A stretch of 64,000 nt of DNA from Clostridia bacterium (GTDB lineage Bacteria > Bacillota > Clostridia > Oscillospirales > UBA644): positions 64,117 through 128,116 of the forward strand of contig JAFRTE010000031.1 of NCBI GenBank assembly GCA_017427285.1. The letters are read 5' to 3'. Positions 10,073 through 45,801 of the stretch are shown piece after piece (within the stretch, counting starts at the first letter, position 1; the number at the start of each line of letters is the position of its first letter). Below the pieces are notes generated by a model. That model saw nothing but the letters and a program-made list of their open reading frames with translations, did no database searches and was not told where the DNA came from. The position numbers were made by a program, and so were the translations under genes.

Positions 10073-10161
10073 GGAGAGGTATCGAAGTGGTCATAACGGG
10101 GCTGACTCGAAATCAGTTTGCGTGAAAGCGCACATGGGTTCGAATCCCATCCTCTCCGCCA
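10073..10161 (+). tRNA. tRNA-Ser (anticodon CGA)
   Basis: Acceptor GGAGAGG/CCTCTCC, anticodon loop CTCGAAA, long variable arm, T-loop TTCGAAT, encoded CCA. Confidence 0.9.
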
Positions 10162-11346: not shown

Positions 11347-12264
11347 ATGACTACCATTCAGAATCAGAATTTCGGCGTTGAAATCGAATTGACGGGGATC
11401 ACCCGCAGGGACGCGGCACGGGTCATCGCGGAATACTACGGAACGACCGCGGCATTTGACGGCAGCTACTACGACATCTACACGGCTACGGACAGCAAGG
11501 GCAGAAAGTGGAAAGCGATGAGCGACGGCAGCATCCGCACCACGAGAAAAGTCAACGGACGTCAGATAGACGCGGACCGCTCGTACAGTTGCGAGGTCGT
11601 CACCCCGATCCTCCAGTACGATGACATCGAAGATCTGCAGGAGATCATCCGGAAGCTCGTCGCTGCCGGCGCGGTTGCAAATTCATCCTGCGGCATTCAC
11701 GTCCATGTGGACGGTGCGAATCACACCCCGCAGAGTTTGACGCGGCTGATCAACTTCGCCATCGGCAGACAGGACCTCTTCTACGAAGCGCTGCAGATCG
11801 GCGACAGAGCGAATCACTGGTGTCACAAGATTTCCCGCCCGCTTCTGAAAGCGATGCGCCACGACAAGGACATGACCAGAACGAGCATGGAAACGATCTG
11901 GTATAGCAGAGCGAACGACGGCTACACCGGAGGCATAAGCCACGAGCATTACAATTCCACGAGATACCACGGCATCAACCTTCACGCTTTCTTCACGAAG
12001 GGCACGGTCGAATTCCGGCTCTTCAATGGAACGACGCACGCCGGCAAGATTAAAGCCTATATCCAGTTTTGCCTGGCGATGAGCGCATGGGCGATCACCG
12101 CTCCCGATAAGATGTACTACAAATCCTGCGCAACGTACACCGCGAAGCAGAAAGAAACGCTGATGCTGAATGTGCTGACGCGCCGCCTCGGAATGACCGG
12201 CAAAGAGTTCAAGACCGCCAGATACCATTTGACGAGGACGTTCACGGAAGCGGCTGCGGCGTGA
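11347..12264 (+). CDS. glutamine-synthetase-fold amidoligase (Amidoligase_2-like)
   Basis: 305 aa with FGVEIELTG, CEVVTPIL, SCGIHVHVDG and GTVEFRLFNGT segments, as in the putative amidoligase family. Confidence 0.7.
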   Translation: MTTIQNQNFGVEIELTGITRRDAARVIAEYYGTTAAFDGSYYDIYTATDSKGRKWKAMSDGSIRTTRKVNGRQIDADRSYSCEVVTPILQYDDIEDLQEIIRKLVAAGAVANSSCGIHVHVDGANHTPQSLTRLINFAIGRQDLFYEALQIGDRANHWCHKISRPLLKAMRHDKDMTRTSMETIWYSRANDGYTGGISHEHYNSTRYHGINLHAFFTKGTVEFRLFNGTTHAGKIKAYIQFCLAMSAWAITAPDKMYYKSCATYTAKQKETLMLNVLTRRLGMTGKEFKTARYHLTRTFTEAAAA

Positions 12265-12308
12265 GGCAAGTCCTGACCTATCGGGCATACGGGGAGAAAG
12301 GAAACGAC

Positions 12309-12740
12309 ATGAGCAAACTATACCTTGCCTATGGAAGCAATCTCAACAAGGCACAGATGCGGATGCGCTGCCCGGATGCTATCGCCATAGGAACGACAGA
12401 AATCAAAGACTATCGGCTTCTCTTCCGCGGTCATCCCCTTGCCGCGGTAGCAACGATCGAAAAGGAAAAAGGATCTTCCGTACCGGTCGCGCTGTGGTCG
12501 ATCTCCGAAGCGGACGAGCGGGCGCTTGACAGATACGAGGGCTTCCCCCGGCTCTATATCAAAAAGTGGCTGACCGTTCCGTTCGGCGGTCGGAACGTGA
12601 AAGCGATGGCGTACATCATGACTGACGGAAGACCTCTCGGACGCCCGAGCGCCGCATACCTCGGGACGATCCGGCAAGGGTACGCTGACTTCAAGATCAC
12701 CTATCAGTACGAACTGACACGCGCGGCGATGGGCGAATAG
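12309..12740 (+). CDS. AIG2 / gamma-glutamylcyclotransferase-like protein
   Basis: YLAYGSNLNKAQMRMRCP and LDRYEGFPRLY motifs. ATG at 12309 with AAAGGA SD. The alternative GTG at 12261 overlaps the amidoligase stop. Confidence 0.75.
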   Translation: MSKLYLAYGSNLNKAQMRMRCPDAIAIGTTEIKDYRLLFRGHPLAAVATIEKEKGSSVPVALWSISEADERALDRYEGFPRLYIKKWLTVPFGGRNVKAMAYIMTDGRPLGRPSAAYLGTIRQGYADFKITYQYELTRAAMGE

Positions 12741-13300: not shown

Positions 13301-14509
13301 TTAAATCTTCTGCATATCGGACGCCCATACACGTCCGGTATAAACTTTTTTGGTCGGCTCGGTGCTTACGAGGTACACCTTGCCATTCTGTTCAATCTGG
13401 CGAACGTAGAGCGTGGCAACGCGCACCCACGACGGCATCCCTACGCCGTTGTAATACTTGGTGACACCCGCTTTGCATTTAACCTTGTCGCCGACCTTGA
13501 TGACATCGGTCGTTGCGCCGCCTGATACCACCGTCCCGCCTGTGGTCGTGATGTATGTGGGAAAACCCGCTGCTTTGAGTTTCTTTTCCATCGCTACAGC
13601 GTAATCGCGTTTGGAATAGGCGCCGACCTGTACGCGGTAGAGCTCGCCGGACTTTTTGAGGATTGCGTCAAATCCCGCCGCTTTTACTTTTTCGAGCTGC
13701 GCGTCGGCGTTTGTCTTCACCTTATAGGCGCCGGTCTGGACATAGTACAGAGTAGTCGGCTGCGCCGGAGGCTCGGGGACTACGGGCGCGTTCAGAGCGT
13801 CAAGGTATTTCTTGACAAGCGCCTTGAAAGTTTTCCAGTTGCCGAGCGCGATTGAATGAGAAGTGCTCCCGAAGATATACGACGGGCACCACTTCCTTCC
13901 GGAGATGAGATTGGTGCACTGCTCGTCCGGATCGGCAAACTTCTTCCCGGCGCTCTTGTTTACCCAGTAGGTATGAGTGACGAGCTTGCTGATCGGAAGG
14001 TTATACTTCCAGAGCAGCCACGCCGCGATCTTCGCGCCGTTGTCTTTCGCTTTGGCGTCGTGATCGGCGCTTTCACCCATGATGATCTCCATCGAGAGGG
14101 ACGTCATATTGCCACCGTCAGCCACGGAGCCGTCGCCGGAATGCCAGGACACTTCGGCAGATCCTTCGGGATCGTTCGGGCAGAGACCCGTTCCGGCTTT
14201 GAGATTCTGCCACGCGCATTTGTCGTCGACATAAAAATGCACCCGAGCGCTCCCCATGTTCTCGTTATAGGTTGCGCGGGTGTACTGTTCGCCGTCGTCG
14301 TTCTCGGTGCCGTTGGTGTCGCCGGTGTTATGGATCGTGACCGACTTCGGCCCGCCAGCGATCTTCTGATTCTTCTTGTAAAGAGACCCGGCACCGCTGA
14401 ATCCGGCATTCTTTGCTTTGGCGTCGTCTTTCCATACCGTCCCGTCCGGGATGATCTTCTCGTTCACGGTGACGCCGTTCATTTTGTATGTGTAGTTCGG
14501 GGTAAGCAT
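13301..14509 (-). CDS. endolysin: N-acetylmuramoyl-L-alanine amidase + SPOR + C-terminal SH3-like wall-binding module
   Basis: Amidase_2-type segments (VTIHNTG, SWHSGDG, THTYW). SPOR-like YYVQTGAYKV...YRVQVGAY. The C-terminal ~65 aa are shared with the protein at 22640..24454. Confidence 0.85.
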   Translation of the reverse strand: MLTPNYTYKMNGVTVNEKIIPDGTVWKDDAKAKNAGFSGAGSLYKKNQKIAGGPKSVTIHNTGDTNGTENDDGEQYTRATYNENMGSARVHFYVDDKCAWQNLKAGTGLCPNDPEGSAEVSWHSGDGSVADGGNMTSLSMEIIMGESADHDAKAKDNGAKIAAWLLWKYNLPISKLVTHTYWVNKSAGKKFADPDEQCTNLISGRKWCPSYIFGSTSHSIALGNWKTFKALVKKYLDALNAPVVPEPPAQPTTLYYVQTGAYKVKTNADAQLEKVKAAGFDAILKKSGELYRVQVGAYSKRDYAVAMEKKLKAAGFPTYITTTGGTVVSGGATTDVIKVGDKVKCKAGVTKYYNGVGMPSWVRVATLYVRQIEQNGKVYLVSTEPTKKVYTGRVWASDMQKI

Positions 14510-14522
14510 CTCTGTTCTCCTT

Positions 14523-14804
14523 TCATGTGATTACTTTCCAGGTTTGCACTTCCTTGTAGATCTTGTCTATGAAGGAATTGCCTCTTAGCTTTTTATACGC
14601 CTCGTAAAGAAGTACGAAATTCTCGTATTCATACTGGCGTATCTCGCATTTCTCCCGATTATGGTAATAAATGCGCAGCATCTCGCTGCGCAAAAGGCAT
14701 CTCTGCCCATCCATTACTTTGCTGATTGATACGATGTAGGATATCACTACGCCAAGCAGTGTTATGACCTCTCCGATCAACGCGGTTATTTCCATCGGTG
14801 ACAC
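14523..14804 (-). CDS. single-pass membrane protein of the lysis cassette (function unknown)
   Basis: 93 aa with one N-terminal TM helix. AAGGGAGGGA SD. Confidence 0.55.
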   Translation of the reverse strand: MSPMEITALIGEVITLLGVVISYIVSISKVMDGQRCLLRSEMLRIYYHNREKCEIRQYEYENFVLLYEAYKKLRGNSFIDKIYKEVQTWKVIT

Positions 14805-14827
14805 ATTCGTTTCCCTCCCTTTGCATG

Positions 14828-14856
14828 AAAAAACCCCGCTGATTTCTCAGTCGGGG
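14828..14856 (-). terminator. terminator overlapping the RT stop codon
   Basis: Sense CCCCGACTGA-GAAA-TCAGCGGGG followed by TTTTTT. Confidence 0.55.
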
Positions 14857-15950
14857 TAGTTGGTATTATCTTCGGCGTAGTGCCGGACGAGGACGAAATC
14901 TTCGAGGACTTTCTTTCTGAACGCATCGCAGTCACAATGTTTCATGAGACCGAGATAACTTTGTATCACGCTCAGGCAGTAGTCGAGGTCGAGTTCGCCT
15001 GTTGAGTAGTGCTCCATCACATATCGCAGATGCTGTTTCATGTATAGCGACGATGATCGGCGTATCTGTATTCGATCCGGGAACACCCGCCGTCCGACGA
15101 ATTCCGGTCCGGCGTCATAAGGCATTATTGCTGTTTTTGAATTGAGATTCAGACCGAGCCGGTCGTACAAAAACGATTCCGCCCGTTCGTGAATCTCATG
15201 CGCTTGATCTTTGCTCGGCGCCAATGCGATCATGTCGTCCATGTTCCGCATGTAGTACGGGGCGCGAAGCTCGCGCTTGATGTAATGATCGAGCGGTGTC
15301 AGAACGACGTTGCCGGTCATCTGAGATATCAGACTGCCGACCTGCATTCCGATTCCGGGGATCCGCTCACAGTCGGTCACGTTTTGAGCATCGAGAGGTA
15401 AACCGAATGCGCGACCGTCACACTTGATCGCTTGCTCGTAAAACCACATCATATCGGGATCGTTGATAGGTTTGCCCAAATATTCAAGCTGAACTTCTAC
15501 GGGAATGCGGAAGAAGAACTTTTTGACGTCCATCTTCAAAAGCCACCAGTTCTCCTTTTTATGTCGAATCAGGCGCATCCAGTATTGCAGTTGCTTCGTT
15601 GCCCGAACGGTACCCATGCCATCCACAGAGCCGTAAGAATGCTCATAGAATGATTTTCTGTATATCGGCCACATGACATTATAGGCGGCGCAGTTCACGA
15701 CGCGATTCTCAAACGGCATCACCGTAATGATGCGCTTTTTCGGGAAATACTCTATAAATTCATGCAGGTTTTTGACCTCATACGTTTTCCAGATAAGGTG
15801 ATTTTGCGAGTTGATCAGATTTTCCTCAAGATTCGCTGTATAGGCAAGCACTTCGTTCCTGTATCGCTTATTACGGCGAGCAAGAAGATAACCGCCATAC
15901 AAGTTTTCAAAATCAATGAATCTTTCAAAAACGTGTTCGTGCTTTTCCAT
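14847..15950 (-). CDS. DGR reverse transcriptase
   Basis: RT motifs including VGSLISQMTGN and YYMRNMDDM. Start taken at the ATG at 15950 (MEKHEHVF); the track ORF extends to a TTG at 16031. Confidence 0.88.
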   Translation of the reverse strand: MEKHEHVFERFIDFENLYGGYLLARRNKRYRNEVLAYTANLEENLINSQNHLIWKTYEVKNLHEFIEYFPKKRIITVMPFENRVVNCAAYNVMWPIYRKSFYEHSYGSVDGMGTVRATKQLQYWMRLIRHKKENWWLLKMDVKKFFFRIPVEVQLEYLGKPINDPDMMWFYEQAIKCDGRAFGLPLDAQNVTDCERIPGIGMQVGSLISQMTGNVVLTPLDHYIKRELRAPYYMRNMDDMIALAPSKDQAHEIHERAESFLYDRLGLNLNSKTAIMPYDAGPEFVGRRVFPDRIQIRRSSSLYMKQHLRYVMEHYSTGELDLDYCLSVIQSYLGLMKHCDCDAFRKKVLEDFVLVRHYAEDNTNYPD

Positions 15951-16103
15951 ATACAGCTCCTCCCGAGGGTTGCGCTTAACAGCTGAGAGCGGTTTACGCA
16001 ACTGATCATTTCTACGCCTGCGCATAGGCAAGCGAAAGGAGCAGATCCCTTATACCCTTGCTCTGATTGTATCCCGTGGGCGTACAATATCTGACGGTGG
16101 GGG

Positions 16104-16220
16104 TAAGCGGCGCGGAACGAGATGTTCGTGTTCGTGTTCGTGCGGGAGTTGTTGCCGTTCGCGTAGAACACGCCGGCGTTCGACGTGTTGTTGTAGTTGC
16201 CGCCGCAGTTGAACGTCCGC
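16104..16220 (-). repeat. DGR template repeat (TR)
   Basis: 117 nt aligning without gaps to 16769..16885. There are 17 mismatches, 16 of them at TR adenines (T on the plotted strand). The TR is rich in AAC codons. Confidence 0.9.
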
Positions 16221-16233
16221 AATGATCTGATCC

Positions 16234-16584
16234 TTATGTCGAGGGCTTGCTGTTGACGGTTTTCAGCCATCCCCCTAACATCTTTCCAATCTCGACGACC
16301 TTTTCGCTCCACACCTCGTATTTCTTCGTAGGCAGGAATTTCAGATCGTGCGACAAGCGCAGATACGCCTTTAGTTTCGTGATCTCAACGTCAAACTCTT
16401 GCAGGGTATTTTTCTTATAATACTTCTTCTGGGCTTCAATACACCGTTCGAGCATTATATCCATGCAGCGTTTGATGTCAGTCGCAAGGGCGTACTTTTC
16501 GGATTTCGGAAATTGAGCGAGAGCGAGATACCCGTATTCCATCATGTCAAAGACTTTTTGAAGAATAATCAGTTCCTCTGCCAT
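16234..16584 (-). CDS. Avd-like accessory variability determinant (four-helix-bundle protein)
   Basis: 116 aa, helical and basic. It sits between the target gene and the TR. Confidence 0.8.
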   Translation of the reverse strand: MAEELIILQKVFDMMEYGYLALAQFPKSEKYALATDIKRCMDIMLERCIEAQKKYYKKNTLQEFDVEITKLKAYLRLSHDLKFLPTKKYEVWSEKVVEIGKMLGGWLKTVNSKPST

Positions 16585-16681
16585 CGCTCCCCGCCTCCGA
16601 ATCCAATGCGCTCGTGAGATTATAACAGATAATTAGGGAGATGACTTGAAAACGGTAGAAAATAACGAAATACGTTATTTG

Positions 16682-16710
16682 AAAAATTTACGCGGCCGCG
16701 CTTCGCGCGG
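16682..16710 (-). terminator. weak terminator-like GC hairpin after the target gene
   Basis: Sense CCGCGC-GAA-GCGCGG, then TAAATTTTT a few nt later. Confidence 0.35.
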
Positions 16711-16714
16711 TATA

Positions 16715-16734
16715 GGCTCCGCTACCGCGGAGCC
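16715..16734 (-). promoter_or_regulatory. VR-flanking GC hairpin (8-bp stem, 4-nt loop)
   Basis: GGCTCCGC-TACC-GCGGAGCC, 13 nt downstream of the target stop codon. Confidence 0.6.
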
Positions 16735-16746
16735 GTCAGAACACAG

Positions 16747-17853
16747 TTATGCAGTAGGCAGGTCACAATAAGCGGCGCGGAACGAGATGTACGTGTACGT
16801 GCTCGAGCGGGAGTAGTAGCCGAGCGCGTAGAACACGCCGGCGGCCGACGAGTAGTAGTAGTAGCCGCCACAGTGGAACGACCGCTCTGCTGCGCTGTTG
16901 TCGAAGTACACATAGTCACCGCCGAGCGCACCGGCAGTGATGTCGTCCGGCCTATAGAAGCCGAGCGCCTGAAGAATGTGCTTCGCTGCGTCGCAGACAG
17001 AGGCATCGAGTTCAACGCTTTCGAGCGTAGCGTAAATCTGCCCGGGCGTCGCCATGGAAATTGCGCCAGTCACCCATGTAAGCTTGTTGCTGATCTTGTC
17101 GATCTTCAAGCTGTTCTGTGTTGTGCCGCTTCCGTTCGGCGTGATGAGCTCGCCGGTCGTACCGTCGATCGCATACCACAGGGCAGAAGAAGCCCCCTGG
17201 CTGTTATCGGGATCAGCCGCGGAGTTTTCAAAGGCTCCGTTACTGGAAAGCACCTGAAGCTCGCCGTAAACGGTGCGCACACCGCCGACCCATTCATAGC
17301 CGTTGCCGTTCAGATCCCAGATGCCGTCCTGCTGACCATTATGCGACCATGTAAGAGGACCGGTGCCGCCCGCGACGTGCAGAGTTTTGCCCTCCCCATC
17401 CTTTGTCATCGGAATCGCCTGATATACGGTTTCGGAATGATCCTTGCCATAGTTGTTATTGCCTTTCGGGAGGGTGCCGTTTTTCAGGCACCAGAGAGCG
17501 ACAGCCATCCACTCAAGGCGCGTTGTCAGATGCCATCCTTCGCCCTTCGCGGTGCATCTTGCGATGGAATTGTCGAGGTTGATATTGTTCGCGTAATCCT
17601 GCCCGGGGAGAGAATATGCGCGGCTGTTCTGAACGATGTTCATGTACTTGGAGAAGTAGATCGCATCGACCTCATGCCCGTTGATCTTGAATGCCGGGAA
17701 AACATCGGTCGAAGTGCCGATGCCGACGTCTGCCCATGTGAATTTCGGGATCTTTACCATGACAGAGGGCATGTTCTTGTCATCGTATTTCAGTTCGTTG
17801 CTTGCTCCGCAAGCGACCTGCAAAGCGAGGTTTGCAACATCGAAGTTACTCAT
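16747..17853 (-). CDS. DGR target: distal tail / receptor-binding protein with C-type-lectin (FGE-sulfatase-like) variable C-terminus
   Basis: 368 aa with a GEGWHLTTRLEWMAVALW motif. The C-terminal VR encodes HCGGYYYYSSAAGVFYALGYYSRSSTYTYISFRAAY, against NCGGNYNNTSNAGVFYANGNNSRTNTNTNISFRAAY in the TR. Confidence 0.85.
   Translation of the reverse strand: MSNFDVANLALQVACGASNELKYDDKNMPSVMVKIPKFTWADVGIGTSTDVFPAFKINGHEVDAIYFSKYMNIVQNSRAYSLPGQDYANNINLDNSIARCTAKGEGWHLTTRLEWMAVALWCLKNGTLPKGNNNYGKDHSETVYQAIPMTKDGEGKTLHVAGGTGPLTWSHNGQQDGIWDLNGNGYEWVGGVRTVYGELQVLSSNGAFENSAADPDNSQGASSALWYAIDGTTGELITPNGSGTTQNSLKIDKISNKLTWVTGAISMATPGQIYATLESVELDASVCDAAKHILQALGFYRPDDITAGALGGDYVYFDNSAAERSFHCGGYYYYSSAAGVFYALGYYSRSSTYTYISFRAAYCDLPTA
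16769..16885 (-). repeat. DGR variable repeat (VR)
   Basis: This is the 3' end of CDS 16747..17853. See the TR entry. Confidence 0.9.
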
Positions 17854-17870
17854 TGTGTTTTGCTCCTTTC

Positions 17871-18191
17871 TTATTCAATCGCCCAAAGGGTGAGAGTTAC
17901 TTTGTCCATGTCGAGGGGCACGGGAACGAGCGTCGGCTCATCGCCTTCGCCGTCTTCCTCGGTGTACGACCGGGCGGGAATGTCGATCTCAGCGACATAC
18001 GCTCTTCCGGCCGCAGCGCCAATCACGAGATCGCCGTCAGCATCGAAGCAGACGTCGATATGAACGGGATCGTCTTCCTCGCGCTTGGCAAGGTTGATCG
18101 TCAGATCGTCGTCAAAGCAGATTTTCTTGCCGGTGACTTCGTATTCGATCTTCGGTCCTTCGTTTTTGTTGATGATAATCATTTGCTCCAT
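17871..18191 (-). CDS. hypothetical tail-fibre module protein
   Basis: 106 aa, acidic. An alternative ATG at 18182 forms an ATGA overlap with the upstream stop. Confidence 0.5.
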   Translation of the reverse strand: MEQMIIINKNEGPKIEYEVTGKKICFDDDLTINLAKREEDDPVHIDVCFDADGDLVIGAAAGRAYVAEIDIPARSYTEEDGEGDEPTLVPVPLDMDKVTLTLWAIE

Positions 18192-18706
18192 CCTCCTATC
18201 ACTTTGTAGCTGATTGTTGCGCTCGCCGCGCTTCCGGTGTATTCGACCTTGAATCCGTTGACGAGCTGATCGCTGACGATGATCTCGCCGACGTTACCGC
18301 TTGCCGCAGTGACTTCTACCACAACGACATAGTTTCCGGTGTCTCTGTTGGTGGAAAGCGCCACGGTCTGCTTGGAATTGTTAAAGGGGTATTTTGATGT
18401 GTTCGTGAGCGTGACCGTCCCCGTCTCGGTCGCGTACAGTTCGTCGATATGCGCCTCGGCCGCATCCAGTCTCTTGTCTGCGGTTTCTTTGTTGTGCCGG
18501 GCGAAATCGAGCAGAATGTAGATCGCTTCCTCGTTTGCCGTCAATCCTTCCTCGATCGAGTTGAAATGTGCGGCGTCCTGGAAAGTACCCTGCTGCATGA
18601 CGGTACCGTACGGAGTGATCGTGTAGATATCGTCATGATCGGCAATCACGGTAAATTTGTTTGTTTCACTGAGTACGTGATCAACCCAGTATGTTCTGTT
18701 ACGCAT
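18179..18706 (-). CDS. tail fibre / baseplate-distal protein
   Basis: 175 aa, assigned by position after the gpI-like genes. TAATG coupling to the upstream gene. Confidence 0.5.
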   Translation of the reverse strand: MRNRTYWVDHVLSETNKFTVIADHDDIYTITPYGTVMQQGTFQDAAHFNSIEEGLTANEEAIYILLDFARHNKETADKRLDAAEAHIDELYATETGTVTLTNTSKYPFNNSKQTVALSTNRDTGNYVVVVEVTAASGNVGEIIVSDQLVNGFKVEYTGSAASATISYKVIGGWSK

Positions 18707-19027: not shown

Positions 19028-19564
19028 TCATATAAGGGAGCCGGGCGATGTGCCGCACGCACGGGCGTGATATGCCGCGGCATCTCCCATTGTTCCCAAG
19101 TTTATATTGCCACTCCGCGCTATGCCGGAAACGGCTTCGCTCGGAATAGTGCCGGTGTCTTTTGTGCCTGCGAGAGCAGCCACAAATTCGGCGCCGTCTG
19201 CGCCGAGAGTGATTGTGATGATTTCGTCTTCGATTCTGCCCTTTACCGCTTCTTCCGGGATTACGCCGCAGCACCGAATGGAATAGATGACGAAGCCGGA
19301 CTGTTCAGATACCGTTGCGATCTCTTCCGAATGAAGGATGATCGCGCCACTTTCGAGCAGAGACCTGACCGGTCTGATACTGTCGATGACGCGCATCAGC
19401 GTCCGGAGAGAAGCGCCGACAGACGAGGCTTCAAGCGTAATGCGGAAATAATACGGATCACCGCCGTATTCGGTCCATTCCTCGACCTTTGCGTTCCGGC
19501 AAAGCATGTTGAGAGCGTACTGCAAAGCGGCTTTTGTGCCGAATTTGGAAATATCCATTTGCAT
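19028..19564 (-). CDS. tail protein I-like paralog (short form)
   Basis: 178 aa. EEWTEYGGDPYYFRI...IRPVRSLLE parallels QEWFEYGGDPYYFKI...VKPTRAVLE of the upstream gene. Confidence 0.6.
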   Translation of the reverse strand: MQMDISKFGTKAALQYALNMLCRNAKVEEWTEYGGDPYYFRITLEASSVGASLRTLMRVIDSIRPVRSLLESGAIILHSEEIATVSEQSGFVIYSIRCCGVIPEEAVKGRIEDEIITITLGADGAEFVAALAGTKDTGTIPSEAVSGIARSGNINLGTMGDAAAYHARACGTSPGSLI

Positions 19565-19571
19565 CCCCCTC

Positions 19572-20264
19572 TCACACGATGGAGCCGAGAGGCGTCCCGC
19601 ACATTCTCACGCTGTATTCCGTAGACGATCCGACAGATTCAAGACTGATAAATCCGTTTTCATCCTCGCCCTGCATTGCCTGTTTGGGATAGGTACCGCA
19701 GAGCCGGGGATTGAAGAACACATACCCGCCGTTTACCGATACGGCTATGACGTTCCGGGAACGATATATCACGTTCTGATCTTCGAGGACTGCGCGTGTC
19801 GGCTTGACCGCTCTCGCGACTCGAACGAGATCGCTTTGCGAAATAGGCGTTGTCTGCTCGGTGACGTCGCAGACGATTTTGAAGTAGTACGGATCACCGC
19901 CATACTCAAACCATTCCTGCACGTCGGAGCCGGGACAGATCGCCGAGAGTGCAAAGACAATCGCGGACTTGGTGCCGAGATGCCGATGCACCATGAACTG
20001 AGCCGCAATTTGTTCCCGCTTGGCTTCCAGCGATGTGTCAGGTAAATACCAGTCTACCTTGTAGTCCTTTGCAAGAATATCAAGCAGTTCCTCCGGTAAA
20101 GAGGAAATGTTCGCATAGATTGCAAGCAGTCGATTTTCCGAAAACAGCGTTTCGAGTTCGTCCGCAATCGCCGAAGCAAGAGCGTATAGGTTTTTGCTCG
20201 AAGCAAGAGCAGAAGGAAAGACGCGCAGCAGATTTTCCGCGGTCAGCCCTTTACTCATCTTCAA
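19572..20264 (-). CDS. baseplate/tail protein I (P2 gpI-like)
   Basis: 230 aa, downstream of the J-like gene, with the conserved WYLPDTSLEAKR...HRHLGT segment. Confidence 0.65.
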   Translation of the reverse strand: MKMSKGLTAENLLRVFPSALASSKNLYALASAIADELETLFSENRLLAIYANISSLPEELLDILAKDYKVDWYLPDTSLEAKREQIAAQFMVHRHLGTKSAIVFALSAICPGSDVQEWFEYGGDPYYFKIVCDVTEQTTPISQSDLVRVARAVKPTRAVLEDQNVIYRSRNVIAVSVNGGYVFFNPRLCGTYPKQAMQGEDENGFISLESVGSSTEYSVRMCGTPLGSIV

Positions 20265-38230: not shown

Positions 38231-40171
38231 CTACCATTCGTCGTAGTATTTGTTCTTGGTCGACCGTTTCTTCTGCGGCGCCCTCTGCGGCGCGTTCTGC
38301 GGCACGGCAGGGACAGGCTTGTCGTCTGTTGTCGCACCTTTCAAACGACGCTCCAGCGCGTCGTAATCGGGCGACATCGCCTTTGCCGCCGCCAGAGCGT
38401 AGTTCCGACAGTCGAGCGCTTCATTCCGTTCGTGTCCCGGGATCTTCTCCCATTGCCACGGGTTTTTCTTTTCGGAGTGATACACAAGTCTCTCGGACAG
38501 CAGCCCTTTGAAGTACGCGGAAGAATAATCATCCCGGCGCGGAAAATGACAGTATTTCGATCCGGGCGTCTGAACGCGCAGATTGTCCATGATCAGGGAC
38601 TTTCCTGCGTCGACGCCGATCTCGAAGACCTGGCACATTCCGATCATCTTGCCGCCTATGACGATCTTCTGTTTCTTCGGCGGCGCTGTATAGGGAATGC
38701 CGTCACCGCCGCGACCTTTGATCGGGAAGAATTTTCTGCCTTGCCGGGCACGGCATTTGTACCGGACGTCCTGCGTGAAGTGGCCGCCTTCGTCCACGAA
38801 GGTCAGCGAAACGCGAAGCCCGATGCCGTTCTCGAATCGGTAAACGTGGCTCGCAAGATCGTCAAGCGCCTGCCACACTTCATCCGTGTCCGGGCGCCCC
38901 ATGATGATCCCTTTTTTGATGCCCCACGTCTCCCCGAAGTGTCCGTGTCCAACCACTTCGTATTCCATGCGGTCATCCTGCGTATCGACGCCCATTGTCA
39001 GCAGAAGAACACCGTCCGGCAGTTCGGCTTTGTATACCTCGCGCCGAGCCATGACGCTTTCCTCATCTTCGAGGTCGCCGCGGTCTTCCCACAGGAGCCC
39101 GAAGCGGGTATTGTAAACGACCTGCATCTTCTTTGAGTTGCCGATCGCTTTCAGGTAAAGAATGATTGTCGATTCCCACGACGCCCACGGTGAGATCCAC
39201 GACGACAGCCAGAATGACCGCGTGCCGTATCTCTCGTATGCGTCCGGATTGTCGGGTACCCATTTCGCGGGCTGACGCTTCATCTCGCTTTCGTAGGAAA
39301 CGCCGCCGCAGCGAGGACACACATAAAACAGCTTTGTGATCTTGTATGTCTTCTCGTTTCCGACTTTCGTTTCCTCTTTATCGAAGCGGATATTGTCGAA
39401 GATGATCTCCTCGTACTCTCCGCAGTGCGGGCATTTCGTTTTCCACCGCTCCATCGTTCCATCGGCATACGCCGCTTCGATCGCGGACGCGCCTTTGATC
39501 GTCGGGGTAGATACCTCTACGGATTTCGCATTGTAGAACGTGATCTGTCGAGCAGTCGCCAGTTCCCACGGGTCGCCCTCGTTTCCGGCTGACGTCGCCC
39601 ATCTGTCCCGCTCGTCGCCGAAGATATATCGTATCGGTTTCGATGCCAGGGCGTGAGCTTCTGTCGAGCCGCACATCGTAAGGATGCCGCCCGGATAGGC
39701 TTTTTGGAGAATAGTGTTCGCGCTGTCCCTGCTTTTTGGATCAGCGACTTTCGATTTGAGCGTTTTGCAGTCTCGGATCATCGGAGCGATTCGCAGCTTG
39801 GAGTATTCCTTCGCGTCTATCGTGGTGGGATGAACGAAAAGGATTGATCCGGGGTCTTGGTCGATAATATATCCGAGCATATTGTTGATCGTCTCGGATT
39901 TGCCGACCTGTGACGAGGAAACAAGAACGATGTGACGGACTTTCGGATCATTGAACGCGTCCATGACATCTTTCAGATAAGGAGTTCGGCTCGTTCGCCA
40001 CGGTCCGACTTCCGCGGAGCTCTCCGGGGAAAGCCGGCGCTTTCTGTCCGCCCATTCCGAAACGGTCAGTTTCTCCGGGGGACGCATGGCGGCGATCGCC
40101 TTGGATATCGCGGCGTTCAGTCTGGCTTCGTCAGCCTTCTTCATCGTCATCCGCGAAATCGGCTGCTTCAA
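38231..40171 (-). CDS. terminase large subunit (GpA family)
   Basis: 646 aa with Walker A SSSQVGKSE and a central zinc-ribbon CPHCG...CPRCG. Confidence 0.88.
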   Translation of the reverse strand: MKQPISRMTMKKADEARLNAAISKAIAAMRPPEKLTVSEWADRKRRLSPESSAEVGPWRTSRTPYLKDVMDAFNDPKVRHIVLVSSSQVGKSETINNMLGYIIDQDPGSILFVHPTTIDAKEYSKLRIAPMIRDCKTLKSKVADPKSRDSANTILQKAYPGGILTMCGSTEAHALASKPIRYIFGDERDRWATSAGNEGDPWELATARQITFYNAKSVEVSTPTIKGASAIEAAYADGTMERWKTKCPHCGEYEEIIFDNIRFDKEETKVGNEKTYKITKLFYVCPRCGGVSYESEMKRQPAKWVPDNPDAYERYGTRSFWLSSWISPWASWESTIILYLKAIGNSKKMQVVYNTRFGLLWEDRGDLEDEESVMARREVYKAELPDGVLLLTMGVDTQDDRMEYEVVGHGHFGETWGIKKGIIMGRPDTDEVWQALDDLASHVYRFENGIGLRVSLTFVDEGGHFTQDVRYKCRARQGRKFFPIKGRGGDGIPYTAPPKKQKIVIGGKMIGMCQVFEIGVDAGKSLIMDNLRVQTPGSKYCHFPRRDDYSSAYFKGLLSERLVYHSEKKNPWQWEKIPGHERNEALDCRNYALAAAKAMSPDYDALERRLKGATTDDKPVPAVPQNAPQRAPQKKRSTKNKYYDEW

Positions 40172-40778
40172 GATTCAACCGCTCGCGTACCCTTTCCTGA
40201 TATTTCGCCGCGTCGTATTTGTAGTTTGCGAGTTCGTTCATGAGCTTGTAGATCTCACGCTCGATGATATCCGATGCCTCCGCGGAATCTTTGGCAGACA
40301 TCACATCTACGGCAAGTCTGCCCGGCAGGGCGAGCAGTCCGCTTCTGATCGTGTAGATCAGATCTTCGGTCATCGCCGCCACGTCTTCCGATCGGTGCAT
40401 CTTCCCGAGGCGTTCCTGCGCGTCCAGCGTCGCAACCGTCGCCTTTGCCTTTTTGAAAGCCGCCTCTGCTTCGCGGCGCGTTGCCTCGGTCTTTTGTTCC
40501 TTATCGTCTCTTTCTTCCGCTCTGGCGTCCAACATCTCGATGTATGCTCGCATCGTTTCCGTCAGTTCATACAGAGCGCCGTGCGGAGTTTGCTTTTTCG
40601 TGAGGATGCCCTGATTTGTCAACTGCCCGATCCACTGATTAGACTTTCCCGTCATCCGGCAGACATCGGCAGTTTTCAGATACACCGGCGTCCCCGCCTG
40701 CATCACATAAACCGCGCCCTCCTTGATTTCCGCTATCGCTTTTTCTTTCGCCACAGCAAACCGCTCCTTTCGCTGCAT
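40131..40778 (-). CDS. terminase small subunit (Nu1-like HTH)
   Basis: Start moved to the ATG at 40778 (MQRKERF), because the track ORF's N-terminus reads through the tRNA. It has an HTH (LKTADVCRMTGKSNQWIGQL) and overlaps the TerL start. Confidence 0.65.
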   Translation of the reverse strand: MQRKERFAVAKEKAIAEIKEGAVYVMQAGTPVYLKTADVCRMTGKSNQWIGQLTNQGILTKKQTPHGALYELTETMRAYIEMLDARAEERDDKEQKTEATRREAEAAFKKAKATVATLDAQERLGKMHRSEDVAAMTEDLIYTIRSGLLALPGRLAVDVMSAKDSAEASDIIEREIYKLMNELANYKYDAAKYQERVRERLNLEAADFADDDEEG

Positions 40779-40852
40779 GGAGCTGACGGAGGGAGTCGAA
40801 CCCACAACCCCGGGATTACAAATCTCGTGCTCTGCCATTGAGCCACGTCAGC
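40778..40852 (-). tRNA. tRNA-Thr(UGU)-like gene inside the prophage
   Basis: Sense GCTGACG..GCTCAATGGCAGAGC..CGAGA-TTTGTAA-TCCCG..GTGGG-TTCGACT-CCCTC-CGTCAGC-T-CCA. The acceptor stem is perfect, with one A-C mismatch in the anticodon stem and one T-T mismatch in the T stem. Confidence 0.6.
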
Positions 40853-41371: not shown

Positions 41372-41890
41372 CTACATCTTGGTGAGCAGTTCCGCGTTGC
41401 TGTGATGTGTTACTCCTTTGCTCATCATGGCGAGGAAGTCATCCTTCGAGAAGTCTGACAGTCGGAATACTTCCTCCGGTCTCATGCCGAGCTGCTTTCC
41501 GATTTCCTCTACCGTCTTTCCGTCGGCGATCAATCTTTTTACGATTGCCTTCATCGGTTCGAGCAGGTGTGTACCTCTTGCGCGGTTGTGTGTCACCGTT
41601 CCGTAGATGTCTTCCGATTGGTCTTTGTGATCTACGATCACCACCGGCACCTTGCCGCCGAGGGCAGAGCGCAGGGGCTCTTCGCCTGCCACGGTCCACC
41701 GATGGAATCCATCTATGATTGTGTAGTCGGGACGCACCACGATAGGGAGCGTCCATCCGTTTGTGAGTATGGATTGTGTCAGCAGTTTGAGATTCTCTTT
41801 GCTGACCTTGTTCGGGTTGTAATCATTGGGGCGAAGTTTGTCCCTGTCCACCCATTGCAGAGAGGAGAGAGGCTTGAACAGATCAGCCAT
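41372..41890 (-). CDS. ParB-like nuclease-domain protein with C-terminal HTH (IbrB-like)
   Basis: Start moved to the ATG at 41890 (8-nt overlap with the upstream gene), giving 172 aa. DYNPN...IIDGFHRW motif. Confidence 0.75.
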   Translation of the reverse strand: MADLFKPLSSLQWVDRDKLRPNDYNPNKVSKENLKLLTQSILTNGWTLPIVVRPDYTIIDGFHRWTVAGEEPLRSALGGKVPVVIVDHKDQSEDIYGTVTHNRARGTHLLEPMKAIVKRLIADGKTVEEIGKQLGMRPEEVFRLSDFSKDDFLAMMSKGVTHHSNAELLTKM

Positions 41891-43040
41891 GTACCGCACC
41901 CCCTCTCGTGGTGGTGCGCTTGGTGTTCTCTGCGTAATGGCAGAAGACATCCTGATACACGGCGCGTAATGTTCTGATCTTCGGATCTCCCGCGAGCAGA
42001 CCGTCATACAACTTCCGATAATCGCGCGGACGTGCCATGCCCTCGATCTTGATGAGGGCTTTGCGGTATTGTTCGGCAACATGCTTCTGGTGTTCCGTGT
42101 GGAAATGCTTCCCCGGATTCTTTATCAGCATGTCAATGAGTTCCGCTTTGTAGTCCCTGTTCTTATTCTCTTCAAGCGCCTTGCGGTTGTGTGTCGTACG
42201 CCCGAACATCTCACTGTCCCAGTAGAGCGCGGCAAGGTAAGCGTTTGGCTCCCTCCGGATCACGCGCTCCATAAGGTCGGGATAGTATTCGTTCATGCGC
42301 ACCAGACACGCCGCGGTGTCGGATGAGAAGAACTGAGAAACGCGGAGCTGTCCCTTGCTGATCCCTGCCTGCCACATATACAGGTAGATGCTGGGGATCT
42401 CGACGTGTTCCTCTTTGAGAAACAACCATACATCGCTCGTCTTCCAGTCATATATCGGGTAGATCTGTCTATTCCCGGTAATGCCTTTCGCGCCCATGTT
42501 GAGCGCCGCCATGTATTGAAGTCTCTGAACAGATTCTGCGGCTCTCACGCCGGACAACATGATCCCGTCTTTCGTCGCCCTTGGCAGGAACGATTGGTAG
42601 TTATCCACGCGAGGTTTGAGCATCGGATGAGATCGGACCGCAAATGGAGGCGGCTGTCTCACCCATACATCGCTCTTTCTGCTGTCCCAGCAGATGAAGG
42701 ATTCATCAGCGGTCAGCTGATTGAAACAACTAAAATGTCGCACCTCGAGACAATACCAGATGAATTTGGCGCCAGCGAGCATGAGTTTCTTTCTCCATGC
42801 TCTGACCGTTTCCTCTATGCAGGGGAAGATCGCCTCTTCATCTATGAATATCGCCGTGAGCTGCGACGGATCTATTTCACCGGATTGAATGAGAGAATAT
42901 ACGAGCTGAGCCACGCATAAACTGTCTTTCCCTCCGGAGAATGACATATAGACCGGCACGCCGTTCGAGAATACGTTCTTGATCCTCTTCTTGGCTGCCG
43001 TTACGACGTCCATATCGGACTGAACACGCCTCACAGCCAT
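41883..43040 (-). CDS. PP-loop ATPase of the PAPS-reductase family with C-terminal extension (IbrA-like)
   Basis: 385 aa. SFSGGKDS PP-loop and a long C-terminal domain. Confidence 0.75.
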   Translation of the reverse strand: MAVRRVQSDMDVVTAAKKRIKNVFSNGVPVYMSFSGGKDSLCVAQLVYSLIQSGEIDPSQLTAIFIDEEAIFPCIEETVRAWRKKLMLAGAKFIWYCLEVRHFSCFNQLTADESFICWDSRKSDVWVRQPPPFAVRSHPMLKPRVDNYQSFLPRATKDGIMLSGVRAAESVQRLQYMAALNMGAKGITGNRQIYPIYDWKTSDVWLFLKEEHVEIPSIYLYMWQAGISKGQLRVSQFFSSDTAACLVRMNEYYPDLMERVIRREPNAYLAALYWDSEMFGRTTHNRKALEENKNRDYKAELIDMLIKNPGKHFHTEHQKHVAEQYRKALIKIEGMARPRDYRKLYDGLLAGDPKIRTLRAVYQDVFCHYAENTKRTTTRGGAVHG

Positions 43041-43639
43041 ATCTTCTCACCGCACTTCGGGCAGATCACGTACGGTCTGCTCGATTCCTCTCTGCCTTCG
43101 CTTCCTCTTTCGGAAGCGTAAGACGCGGTGGGCGTCGTTTCGCCTGTCGGCTGTTCCGGCGCCTCGTATGGAACATTGGCGTTTTTGATATCCTCGGCTT
43201 CCTGCGGATCTATCGTCCCGTACTCTGACAGTTTTTCCGTCATGTCGCTGTCATCCATGAGGAGCGATTTCAGAAAATCCTCATCATAACCGGGAACGTC
43301 AAGATCGTCGCTGAGTTCAGCGAGGATTTCATCGAAGACCGAGATATTGTCAACGCCCAGATTGAAAATCCGGTTGTCAGCCATCATGAGCTTCTTTTTG
43401 TCTTTCTCGCTCAGTCCGGTGATCTTGTTGCAATACGCCTCAGTCCATCCGAGTTCTCTCATTGCCATATACATGCCGTTGCCGGTCAGAATGACGTTCT
43501 TTTCGTCAATCGTGATCGGCTTGACCTGCTTGAATTTCTGCAATGAGCGTTTATACTCTCTGATCTGCGCTTCCGGGTGCATACGGATGTTCTTTTCTGC
43601 CGGATGCAGATCTTCGAGCCGGTATTTCTCCACTTTCAC
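43031..43639 (-). CDS. ParB-N-like domain protein with C-terminal zinc ribbon (degenerate GxxR box)
   Basis: 202 aa, GTG start with AAGGGGGTGA SD. LHPAEKNIRMHP...ILTGNGMYMAMRELGW, and a C-terminal CPKCG. Confidence 0.6.
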   Translation of the reverse strand: MKVEKYRLEDLHPAEKNIRMHPEAQIREYKRSLQKFKQVKPITIDEKNVILTGNGMYMAMRELGWTEAYCNKITGLSEKDKKKLMMADNRIFNLGVDNISVFDEILAELSDDLDVPGYDEDFLKSLLMDDSDMTEKLSEYGTIDPQEAEDIKNANVPYEAPEQPTGETTPTASYASERGSEGREESSRPYVICPKCGEKIWL

Positions 43640-43645
43640 TTTTCG

Positions 43646-44434
43646 TCACCCCCTTTCTTCAAGGAAGCGACGAGCGCTCTCGATCTTCGCCGCGGCGCTT
43701 TCGACAATGGACGGATCGATGTCATAAACTTCGCTCCATCCGTTTTCGACGCTTCCGCACCACTGACGCGCCGGCCAGGGATGCGTACCGCACAGATAAC
43801 CGTTCTTCCATCCATAGATCGGAGGAAGCGGCAGTTTGTTGTAGTGGATATAGGCGAGGATGTGTTCGTGCTTCCAATCGGCGAGAGGGCTGTACCTCAG
43901 GACGCCTTTGCCGTCCGTGTAGGAATTGTCCTTGCCGGTATAGTTGCCGTCCGCATGCCTGCGCCCCAATACCAGAACATCAAGCGCTTTGTCTTTGAAG
44001 AAGATGCGCTGCGCTGTATGCTGTACAACGGAAAACCACCGAGCCGCATAAGCGCTCGACTTCGGAAAGAGCAGTTGCTCGTGTTTGGCAAGCCAGTCAA
44101 GCCCGAGCTCGATCTTCACGATTTCGCATCCGTCAGGCTTGTTCTTCTCAATCCACGTCATAAACGCAGGATATTCGAGATCGCACACTCCGATCATGCT
44201 CTCGTGAATGCCCGCCTTTTCGCAGAGTTTGCTAAGGACAATACTGTCCTTGCCACCGCTCCACGCATACGCGGCGTGTTTTCCTTTGACAAACTTTTTG
44301 ATTTCGGAAACGGTCTTTGACGCGAGCTTGTCGATCTCGTCTTTCGTGACCGCTTCCTCGATATGTTCAACGGCGTTCAGCCAGTCCTCGTTTTTTGTGG
44401 ACTGCTTTTTGCCGAGATGAATTACTGCTGACAT
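43646..44434 (-). CDS. PP-loop ATPase of the PAPS-reductase family (short form)
   Basis: 262 aa. WSGGKDS PP-loop. The start overlaps the permease stop by 13 nt and has a GGGAGG SD. Confidence 0.75.
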   Translation of the reverse strand: MSAVIHLGKKQSTKNEDWLNAVEHIEEAVTKDEIDKLASKTVSEIKKFVKGKHAAYAWSGGKDSIVLSKLCEKAGIHESMIGVCDLEYPAFMTWIEKNKPDGCEIVKIELGLDWLAKHEQLLFPKSSAYAARWFSVVQHTAQRIFFKDKALDVLVLGRRHADGNYTGKDNSYTDGKGVLRYSPLADWKHEHILAYIHYNKLPLPPIYGWKNGYLCGTHPWPARQWCGSVENGWSEVYDIDPSIVESAAAKIESARRFLEERG

Positions 44435-45801
44435 CTCGCCGCCTCCCTTCTGGAGACCACAAGCGCCACAATGCCGCTGATCAGCACCGTCGCCAGGCTT
44501 CCGATAGTCTTAAACAGCGCGTTGCCGGCGATATTCCCATAGGCGAAGATCGGAAGACCGATAACCACCGAAGAAATGATGCCGTAGAAGATCCCGTTGC
44601 CGGAAAGTTTCTTGTTGAGCAGCGTCATCGCCGTAGGCAGAAGCGTCGTCGCTCTGATTGTGCAGTAGAACAGGAACAGATGCGTGACGGTAAGCCCCGG
44701 AATGTTGGCAATGCCGATACCCAGCAGCAAAAGTACTCCCATGCTTCCTTTGGCGGTCTTCATGCTTGCGCCGAAGTCGCTCGTGAGCGACGCCATCGCG
44801 CACAGATTGCTGTCAACCGTCGAGAGAAGCCCGGAAATCACCATGAACAGGAACGGGAGCATTACCCACTTCGGGAAAAGATTCGTGATCAGTTCGAAGT
44901 TCACCATGCCCGTATCTGCAGCCACATAGCCAGAGCCCGCAGCAACATATCCGAGGATCCCCATGGAGAGGGGCACGACGGCGAACATCAGAGCGCCGAG
45001 GATGAATGCCTTTCCGATCTTGCCTTTCTTGATGGAAAACGCCCTCTGCCAGAAGCACTGATCTCCGAACGGACCGGCAATGAGACCGATCGCGGTCGGA
45101 ATACCGAACGAGAGTAATACCGAGATTCCGTTTCCGTCAAACAGATGCTTGAATTCTCCACTGATACCACCGAGACCGTTCAGCAGGTTTGAAACACCGC
45201 CGTCCATCGACAACGCCCACGGCACGAAGATCAGACATGCAAGAAGCATGAGAATCATCTGAATCGCGTCCGTAAGGACCGAAGCCTTGATGCCGGAGAA
45301 CTGCGAATAGGAGAATGCAATCACCGCCAGGATGATCGTCATTACCCAGAACGGAATACCCGTAATCGCGGAGAGTATCTTGCCGCCCGCGAGAAGCTGA
45401 ACGCCTGTTGACAGGACGGACAGAAGCGAGAGCTGGCCGAGATAAGCATATTTGACTTTCTTGGATTGATATTGCGTCGCCATGAAGTTTGAGAGTGTGA
45501 TACCTTCCGGCATCCTTTCTCTGATCTTCTTGGCGAATGGTACGAACAGGATCAGGCATGCGACGTTCGGAACGAGAAACCAGAACAGTCCCGGAATGCC
45601 GCTCGAATACGCTTTTTCAGCCGATGTGAACAGCGCCGGCGCCCAAATCCAAGTCGCCGCTATGCTCATCGCTGCTTGCCACATCCCTAATTTTCTGTTC
45701 GCAACGTGGAAATTGTCGGTGTCTTTGCTTTTCTTTGAAAAGATCAAAGTCGCACCGAGCATGATCGCCGTGTATACGACGAGTACAATGATACCGTACA
45801 T
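44422..45801 (-). CDS. sodium:solute symporter family (SSF) permease
   Basis: 459 aa with about 12-13 TM helices and SSF-type segments (SIAATWIWAPALF, GIKASVLTDAIQ). AAAGGAGGAAGG SD. Confidence 0.75.
   Translation of the reverse strand: MYGIIVLVVYTAIMLGATLIFSKKSKDTDNFHVANRKLGMWQAAMSIAATWIWAPALFTSAEKAYSSGIPGLFWFLVPNVACLILFVPFAKKIRERMPEGITLSNFMATQYQSKKVKYAYLGQLSLLSVLSTGVQLLAGGKILSAITGIPFWVMTIILAVIAFSYSQFSGIKASVLTDAIQMILMLLACLIFVPWALSMDGGVSNLLNGLGGISGEFKHLFDGNGISVLLSFGIPTAIGLIAGPFGDQCFWQRAFSIKKGKIGKAFILGALMFAVVPLSMGILGYVAAGSGYVAADTGMVNFELITNLFPKWVMLPFLFMVISGLLSTVDSNLCAMASLTSDFGASMKTAKGSMGVLLLLGIGIANIPGLTVTHLFLFYCTIRATTLLPTAMTLLNKKLSGNGIFYGIISSVVIGLPIFAYGNIAGNALFKTIGSLATVLISGIVALVVSRREAARCQQ

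Follow-up and report, generated by a model that had tools for sequence, protein, structure and literature searches.

A 64,000-nucleotide stretch of a Clostridia bacterium assembly (GCA_017427285.1, contig JAFRTE010000031.1, positions 64,117 to 128,116; hereafter the window) raises the question of whether the segment of its minus strand between positions 14847 and 17853 holds a whole and working diversity-generating retroelement (DGR) and, if so, which protein that element diversifies. A first-pass annotation, made from the sequence alone, had answered that it is a complete, apparently active DGR acting on the distal tail protein of a prophage. Our own reading, held with high confidence, is that the locus is a complete DGR of the BPP-1 type in a myovirus-type prophage of ruminant-gut Clostridia, and that it diversifies a probable receptor-binding protein with a lectin fold.

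Open reading frames (ORFs) and profile searches place the parts on the minus strand in the order target gene, avd, template repeat (TR), spacer and reverse transcriptase (RT), with the variable repeat (VR) lying within the end of the target gene. All four DGR parts are present, in the BPP-1-type order that had been described from the letters. The main features are as follows.

16747..17853, minus strand: target (variable-protein) gene, 368 amino acids (aa) with the VR at the C-terminus; PHROG 2889, 7e-101
16769..16885, minus strand: VR, codons 324-362 of the 368-aa target, aligned to the TR over 117 nt without gaps
16234..16584, minus strand: avd (accessory variability determinant), 116 aa; PF22296 bAvd, 1.4e-32
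16104..16220, minus strand: TR, non-coding, 13 nt past the avd stop, with 31 adenines
15951..16103, minus strand: spacer (Sp), 153 nt between TR and RT, the putatively structured part of the DGR RNA
14847..15950, minus strand: DGR reverse transcriptase, 367 aa; RVT_1, 4.5e-16, and PHROG 1423, 1.3e-95

The adenine-specific signature of the repeats

A recount of the TR/VR alignment reproduced the figures first reported for it, namely 117 nt without a gap and 17 mismatches, 16 of which fall at TR adenines (hypergeometric p = 2.2e-10, given 31 A in 117). The seventeenth is a synonymous C>T change (TGC>TGT) at Cys328, window position 16870. As had also been stated, the variable Asn codons have become Tyr, Ser, Ala, Leu or His in the VR; in addition, Thr codons have become Ser. 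Read in the frame of the VR, the TR would encode R-T-F-N-C-G-G-N-Y-N-N-T-S-N-A-G-V-F-Y-A-N-G-N-N-S-R-T-N-T-N-T-N-I-S-F-R-A-A-Y, and 20 of its codons bear adenine. The variable codons had been described as AAC, which is true of 11 of them; the description leaves out 5 ACG, 3 TAC and 1 ATC codons that carry adenine too. None of the 20 can be mutated to a stop, and about 2e18 protein variants are possible.

The two repeats end alike. Their last 22 nt are identical and GC-rich, include CGTTCCGCGCCGC and resemble an initiation of mutagenic homing (IMH) site, while the identity stops directly after ...GCTTA, both points in agreement with the first description. A scan of the whole window that tolerated A changes found no second VR: the true VR scored 85 of the 86 non-A positions, and the best sequence elsewhere in the window scored at most 44 of 86.

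The same signature recurs widely. Nearly every related locus with enough flanking sequence (n = 73) has the order target-Avd-TR-RT, a TR of 110-117 nt and a spacer that is typically 150-190 nt long, and 937 of the 983 TR/VR mismatches in these loci lie at A, a proportion to be read with the caveat that the aligner used for the 73 loci penalised A-site mismatches less. The window's element had been called an unusually clean example, a label that must be dropped, since all but a few of the 73 loci have the same layout and adenine bias.

The direction of substitution in the VR looks bimodal across loci, with A>T prevailing in some (e.g. the window, L014, L018 and L082) and A>G in others (e.g. L007, L008, L019 and L067). 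The window's VR, which encodes a Tyr-rich site, has A>T at 11 of 16 positions and that of L008 has A>G at 12 of 13, and the RTs of the two are nearly identical. The split may come from selection for Tyr or Ser and not from a bias of the RT.

Recent diversification in the lineage

The activity of the lineage was judged from public contigs related to the window. The TR is identical in seven of them (L001-L006 and L009), and four related loci have 10-13 TR/VR mismatches each, all at A. Over 1,319 bp, a contig from the same cohort (L094) shows 23 differences from the window, 20 in the VR and 3 outside it; 19 of the VR differences are at TR-A positions, and the twentieth is position 16870, where L094 retains the TR base. 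Two contigs from different runs (L007 and L008), both 95% identical to the window, differ from one another at 9 positions in 11,100 bp, of which 7 are in the VR, and L007 differs from a third contig (L010) at 16 positions in 5,790 bp, of which 14 are in the VR. When the VR differences of related contigs were tested for falling at non-A as often as at A positions, this was not the case.

These sister phages also provide a natural record of transfer between the repeats. The TRs of L007, L008 and L010 carry two non-A changes (TCC>GCC and ACG>TCG), both of which are mirrored in their own VRs, and such copying is the signature of information flow from TR to VR. Together with the VR-restricted differences at A sites, this transfer indicates that the lineage has diversified recently.

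For the individual prophage in the window the picture is different, in that five further public contigs with both TR and VR carry its exact pair, and a sixth, which ends before the TR, has the same VR. The earlier wording, "apparently active", is therefore upheld for the lineage by the comparison of contigs, but the contigs show no change in this particular prophage. From the behaviour of the lineage we infer that the window's own copy is active as well.

Reverse transcriptase and Avd

The gene that had been described as Avd-like is recognised by Pfam as bAvd, and its product also matches PF05635 (1.2e-10) and PHROG 3206, "Avd protein of DGR" (1.3e-40). For the RT, the most likely start codon is the ATG at 15950 and not the TTG at 16031; it gives 367 aa, the gene call made on six public contigs. 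Both motifs first noted in the RT are present.

15321-15338, minus strand: motif 4, GSLISQ, within VGSLISQ (RT residues 204-210)
15234-15245, minus strand: motif C, NMDD (RT residues 236-239), within YMRNMDD (residues 233-239)

The best PDB match of the RT is the BPP-1 bRT (8ub7, E = 1.5e-23), and the alignment pairs KMDVKKFF with KSDFSKFF, GSLISQ with GSLTSQ and RNMDD with RYMDD. The Asp of motif A and the two Asp residues of motif C are thus aligned with their catalytic counterparts. The NMDD box is found in 4 of 46 distinct RTs, its holders being the window and relatives with an RT identity of at least 80% (L007, L008, L010, L011 and L016), and the window's clade is the only one in the sample to have it. 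Near-identical contigs of this clade still show VR-only changes, which, as far as comparative sequence can tell, suggests that the clade works with NMDD in place of the YMDD catalytic box.

One member of the clade stands out. The IMG/VR locus L011 (3300018494_002562), which has NMDD and an RT 80% identical to the window's, shows 27 TR/VR mismatches, 15 of them at adenines. It may be a decaying element, a case of non-canonical mutagenesis, or a pair with a small indel that the ungapped aligner missed.

The target protein

The target has no Pfam match at 0.01, and the only solved structure that matches it by sequence is 5VF4 (phmmer E = 5e-38, residues 7-253). The structure is that of TaqVP, which serves as variable protein to a prophage DGR of Thermus aquaticus (PMC6328139). 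An AlphaFold2 model of the target, built on 60 homologues, reached a pLDDT of 91.9 and a pTM of 0.92, and Foldseek aligned it with 5vf4 over the full length (TM 0.86/0.84, 27% identity, E = 1e-37). Many homologues of the target carry PF03781. The target is a stand-alone, single-domain C-type-lectin protein of the FGE type and belongs to the TaqVP family. The variable residues would, on this model, lie at the C-terminal ligand-binding face of the lectin.

Two other identities were considered and rejected. The first-pass annotation had proposed a comparison with the folds of Mtd and TvpA; in Foldseek these two and FGE do match the target, weakly and through the common C-type-lectin core (TM ~0.3); the full-length match is TaqVP, at TM 0.86. 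An Mtd identity fails in particular because 1yu0-1yu4 match weakly (TM ~0.3, E >= 5e-3) and a TaqVP-like domain accounts for all 368 aa. The name "distal tail protein" misleads if it is taken to mean Dit, and "probable receptor-binding protein" is the better term. The product is not Dit: it has no Pfam match and a C-type-lectin fold, and its gene does not directly follow the tape-measure gene.

The location of the gene speaks to its role. On its 5' side lie genes for the tail sheath, tube, tape-measure protein, tail X, gpD, V, W and baseplate J; between baseplate J and the target come two Tail_P2_I-like genes and then three small ORFs on the same strand; and on the 3' side of the cassette are a small ORF, an Amidase_2-SPOR endolysin and a holin. 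Standing after J, the I-like genes and the small ORFs and before the lysis genes, the target occupies the tail-fibre position of a P2-type baseplate module. Residues 23-122 match a "tail protein" PHROG (9e-11), and the neighbours of the model in BFVD include many "tail collar fiber" or "tail fiber" proteins with part of the fold in common (TM ~0.4-0.5). The target is most likely the receptor-binding protein of the phage, in which case the DGR would let the phage switch its host range (tropism).

NCBI lists the exact 368-aa protein, annotated as hypothetical, in a metagenome-assembled genome of a Clostridia bacterium, and it also occurs on contigs from ruminant gastrointestinal metagenomes.

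Alternative explanations

Several observations weigh against the reading of the locus as a complete DGR that diversifies a receptor-binding protein. The VR has one non-A change; the window's clone shows no VR variation among six public contigs, which stem from one project but from several of its samples; the catalytic box of the RT is NMDD, as against YMDD in 41 of the 46 distinct relatives and FMDD in one; and folded as a single sequence, the TR and spacer RNA does no better than shuffles (z = -0.02). A place in the virion and a role in receptor binding, for their part, are argued from gene order and tail-fibre fold similarity, and TaqVP is monomeric. Some of these points would be expected if the DGR, intact as it looks, were now silent in this prophage, either through the Y>N change in the YMDD box or for want of expression, and the VR were a frozen record of past homing. 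NMDD is indeed rare, the VR is identical in contigs from different samples, and the private non-A substitution at 16870 is what would be expected if time had passed since the last homing. Set against this are the contigs L007, L008 and L010, which have an NMDD RT (98% identical) and differ almost only in the VR, and also L094, with its 19 differences at TR-A positions and only 3 outside the VR in 1.3 kb. Every ORF is intact, as are TR, hairpin and spacer, and silence is regarded as unlikely.

It is also conceivable that the DGR is real but that its target is a non-structural or host-surface lectin-like protein, such as a factor for lysogenic conversion or one related to superinfection. In bacteria, DGRs mostly act on proteins other than those of phage tails. 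Moreover, the search for a Pfam tail domain came up empty, and TaqVP, the closest structure, is a single-domain monomer without a shown virion role. The placement of the gene between baseplate and lysis genes, however, recurs in the related loci examined and in the phages Saumur, BalMu-1 and VHML, and both the tail-protein PHROG match and the many BFVD neighbours named for tail fibres or tail collar fibres speak for a virion component, which makes a non-virion target very unlikely. As for the notion that TR and VR are an ordinary diverged duplication in which reverse transcription had no part, the existence of a repeat is all that favours it, and we give it next to no credence: 16 of the 17 mismatches coincide with adenines in a single copy (p = 2e-10), the direction is the same in 73 loci, RT and Avd genes adjoin the repeats, and non-A changes of the TR have been copied into the VR. 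A DGR that diversifies a probable receptor-binding protein thus remains the preferred reading.

Target-site elements downstream of the variable repeat

The sequence at and beyond the 3' end of the VR holds four elements.

16772..16784, minus strand: GC-rich VR 3' end CGTTCCGCGCCGC, common to TR and VR, equivalent of the GC14 part of the IMH
16737..16761, minus strand: phased CTG array of four CTGs (16759-61, 16752-54, 16744-46 and 16737-39), candidate for the non-GC part of the IMH
16715..16734, minus strand: hairpin/cruciform GGCTCCGC-GGTA-GCGGAGCC, with an 8-bp GC stem and a 4-nt GRNA loop
16696..16710, minus strand: second hairpin, CCGCGC-GAA-GCGCGG, with a T-run 9 nt downstream

The GC-rich end is kept as TTCCGC(N)CCGCTT in nearly all related loci. 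In both VR and TR the window has CGTTCCGCGCCGC-TTA followed by unrelated sequence, which corresponds to the non-identity of IMH and IMH* (the TR counterpart of the IMH).

Past the VR, the four CTGs of the window are spaced by 7, 8 and 7 nt, in an array that runs across the stop codon (16747-16749). Of 48 distinct loci, 42 have three or more CTGs chained in 7-8-nt steps no more than 45 nt past the VR, and 0 of 48 have such a chain after the TR. Besides the window, the array was noted among L011-L090 and in L091, which is Saumur, L095, which is BalMu-1, and L098, which is VHML. Shuffled sequences gave a mean of 0.025 loci, and no other trinucleotide was comparable. Among cultured phages, Saumur has four CTGs, BalMu-1 has three ATCTG, and VHML has two TAACTG and a CTTTG. 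The array is faint in BMP-1/BPP-1 (TCTG..CCTG..TCTTG), where the middle CTG is one of the differences between IMH and IMH*, and it was not found in Arawn or Hankyphage.

The periodicity could have been a by-product of the C-terminal peptide LPTA and the stop that follows it, an explanation that was rejected because the array is kept where the stop codon lies upstream; this also marks it as an element at the level of the nucleic acid. Pairing of CAG motifs in the spacer with the CTG array was likewise rejected, as the flanking bases do not co-vary: in L014 and L019, for example, the spacer motif is GCCAG, and the target reads CTGAC or CTGTT.

No mention of a phased CTG array was found in the DGR target-site and survey literature searched. 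How DGR cDNA retrohomes is still incompletely understood, according to a 2026 study (PMC12875486). We tentatively propose, giving the idea somewhat less than an even chance, that in a large clade of phage DGRs the phased CTGs make up the part of the IMH that is sequence-specific; the clade would take in Clostridia and Bacillus phages, Vibrio phage VHML and possibly, in degenerate form, BPP-1. If so, the array would serve as a repeated recognition code that names the recipient copy for the retrohoming machinery or a host factor, and it would set the distance to the hairpin.

The hairpin starts at +35, that is, with 34 nt between the end of TR/VR homology and the stem. Folding of the DNA downstream of the VR predicts it with z = -1.94, which is weak by itself, so the argument for the hairpin is carried by its conservation across loci. 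A first perfect hairpin is present in 48 of 53 distinct loci and in 44 it starts at +31 to +42; the stems differ in sequence among loci, and the loops are mostly GATA, GGTA, GAAA or GGCA. Work on phage DGR targets by Guo et al. in 2011 described GC stems of 7-10 bp with GRNA loops, 4-34 bp past the VR, and showed that efficient homing requires both the stem structure of the hairpin and the loop sequence (PMC3240598). The hairpin of the window fits this description and would by analogy have the same function.

The second hairpin recurs in many relatives, e.g. as TTCCGCG-CGAAG-CGCGGAA with a T-run after it. Possibly it acts as terminator for the target gene, though the assignment is weak because the terminator scan did not call it.

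The spacer RNA and a candidate priming site

Since the single-sequence fold was uninformative, the spacer had to be analysed by alignment. In 34 distinct aligned spacers, 23 pairs in 5 helices are 92.9% paired, as against 35-55% in slid controls, and 135 cells of the helices are changed on both sides, as against 41.5 in shuffles. Covariation of this kind supports the view that the spacer is a conserved, structured RNA. A search of Rfam at gathering thresholds matched only three tRNAs, and no RNA family within the cassette.

Conserved blocks of the spacer are GYCAGAT, YCAGTRC, TAAAGGG and an A-run. The most conserved is TAAAGG, with an invariant AAGG core; in the window it reads TAAGG (16048-16052). 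The TAAG at 16049-16052, for which most relatives have TAAAG, can pair with the CTTA at the 3' end of the TR, as CTTTACC can with GGTAAAG in relatives, and this duplex of TR and spacer is 81.5% paired, compared with 36-56% in slid controls, with only 8 compensatory cells. In BPP-1, A56 of the spacer pairs with U118 of the TR and primes through its 2'-OH beside a required G57, and G117 of the TR is copied first (PMC6182149). By analogy, the TAAAGG/TAAG block is a suggestive candidate for a self-priming site.

A proposed mechanism

Taken in order, and again by analogy with BPP-1, the parts could work together as follows. A transcript of avd, TR and spacer, perhaps extending into the RT gene, would fold by way of the structured 153-nt spacer and recruit a complex of RT and Avd. 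The cDNA would be self-primed from an adenosine of the spacer, probably in the TAAAGG block paired with the 3' end of the TR. Synthesis would begin within the GC-rich stretch at that end, and the RT would copy the TR faithfully save opposite adenines. The adenine-mutagenised cDNA would then replace the VR (16769-16885), which would be targeted through the common GC-rich end together with two VR-specific elements, the four phased CTGs and the GRNA-loop hairpin. The 20 variable codons would map to the ligand-binding face of the lectin, and if the lectin is the receptor-binding protein the outcome would be host-range switching.

Prophage context and neighbouring genes

The prophage had been described as a mosaic of a lambda-type head and a P2-type tail, and its genes agree with this. 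The head module is of the lambda family, with portal, gpA terminase, ClpP-like protease and capsid E genes, and the contractile tail is P2-type.

The two Tail_P2_I-like genes stand in tandem on the minus strand (19028-19564 and 19572-20264), and the pair is kept in related contigs. The second copy, of 178 aa, aligns with the C-terminal half of the first (31% identity, E = 7e-30), and the two have EYGGDPYYF and a CGT..GS(I/L) C-terminus in common. Beyond the holin, on the opposite strand (11347-12740, plus), lie an Amidoligase_2 gene (2.5e-67) and a gene for a GGACT/AIG2-like gamma-glutamyl cyclotransferase, a pair that is also kept in related phage contigs (L001, L003 and L007-L009).

A scan of 14700-18300 for sigma-70 promoters and terminators gave nothing above shuffle expectation. 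The sequence TGTTATAAT lies upstream of avd, and no promoter is claimed from it. Within avd, upstream of the TR, there is an 11/12 match to the sigma-70 consensus (CTGACA-16-TATAAT; 16454-16481, minus strand), in a region where the total of promoter-like sequences is not above that of shuffles.

Between the terminase and replication modules (41372-45801, minus strand), a gene of the sodium:solute symporter family (44422-45801; 1.4e-25) has PAPS-reductase-like and ParB-like nuclease genes as neighbours. The symporter gene may be cargo, or the stretch 41372-45801 may be an insertion. A tRNA-Ser(CGA) (10073-10161, plus strand) stands at the junction of host genes and the lysis/HTH end of the phage and is a likely integration site. 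No direct att repeat of at least 13 nt was found between this junction and 50-64 kb of the window, and the far end of the prophage is probably outside the window. Within the prophage, a tRNA-Thr(TGT) (40778-40852, minus strand) overlaps the small-terminase ORF (40131-40838) at its 5' end.

Comparison with known systems

The relatives of the target are abundant, with 1,352 database proteins and at least 517 IMG/VR contigs (PHROG 2889 targets). DGRs in gut prophages had been called a known class, and rightly so, given the size of this family, a solved homologous structure and cultured representatives. At the nucleotide level, a megablast search of 50,697 phage records gave no match to 14500-18300, and a tblastn search with the RT found no cultured phage RT above 41% aa identity. 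Two IMG/VR loci (L025 and L026) encode a 56%-identical target homologue followed by 1.7-2.6 kb in which no Avd or RT is detectable; the target may be remote there, the DGR may have been lost, or the arrangement may differ.

With the system of Bordetella phage BPP-1/BMP-1 (mtd-avd-TR-brt), the window's element has in common the gene order, an Avd, a C-terminal VR on a C-type-lectin fold and AAC-rich codons. The dimensions are also alike, with a TR of 117 nt here and 134 nt there and a spacer of 153 nt here and 144 nt there, and in both systems the homology has a GC-rich 3' end, there is a segment specific to the target, and the GC hairpin has a stem of 8 bp and a GRNA loop, which is GGTA in the window and GAAA in the phage. 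In contrast, the identity of the RT to that of BPP-1 is only about 25%, the catalytic box is NMDD and not YMDD, and the window's target lacks the beta-prism and beta-sandwich trimerisation domains of Mtd (TM ~0.3 to 1yu0). The hairpin of BMP-1 is ~20 nt past the homology end (5 nt past the annotated VR1), compared with 35 nt here, the target-specific segment of BPP-1 reads TCTG..CCTG..TCTTG where the window has four regularly phased CTGs, and the window's phage, unlike BPP-1, is a myovirus with a P2-type baseplate.

TaqVP resembles the target as a single globular C-type-lectin domain of the FGE type, with an N-terminal wrap and a C-terminal VR of ~40 aa, and it too is encoded by a prophage DGR of BPP-1-like organisation. 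It differs in host phylum and environment, and its similarity by phmmer is limited to residues 7-253.

Among cultured phages, Clostridium phage Saumur (ON453901) and Bacillus phage BalMu-1 (KP063903) have the same succession of baseplate genes, small ORFs, target, Avd, TR, RT and lysis genes. Their targets are ~320-355 aa long, the 3' ends of their TRs have the same TTCCG..CCGCT motif, and beyond the VR come phased repeats of (A)ACTG or ATCTG and a hairpin with a GGTA loop; the spacer motifs GYCAGA and TAAAGGG are common to them as well. They differ in the RT, which is 39-41% identical to the window's and falls in the YMDD branch of the family.

With such abundant relatives and the cultured Saumur cassette, the element belongs to a well-populated and already characterised kind; it is ordinary for gut phages and categorically nothing new. 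Its interest lies in marking the probable receptor-binding protein of the prophage, which predicts rapid host-range variation in a rumen Clostridia phage. The comparative data are possibly worth more than the element itself, for they amount to a natural "mutagenesis" series for TR-to-VR transfer and also provide the phased CTG array, a covariation-backed model of the spacer with a candidate priming block, and an NMDD variant of the RT. They bear on how the cDNA finds and replaces the VR.

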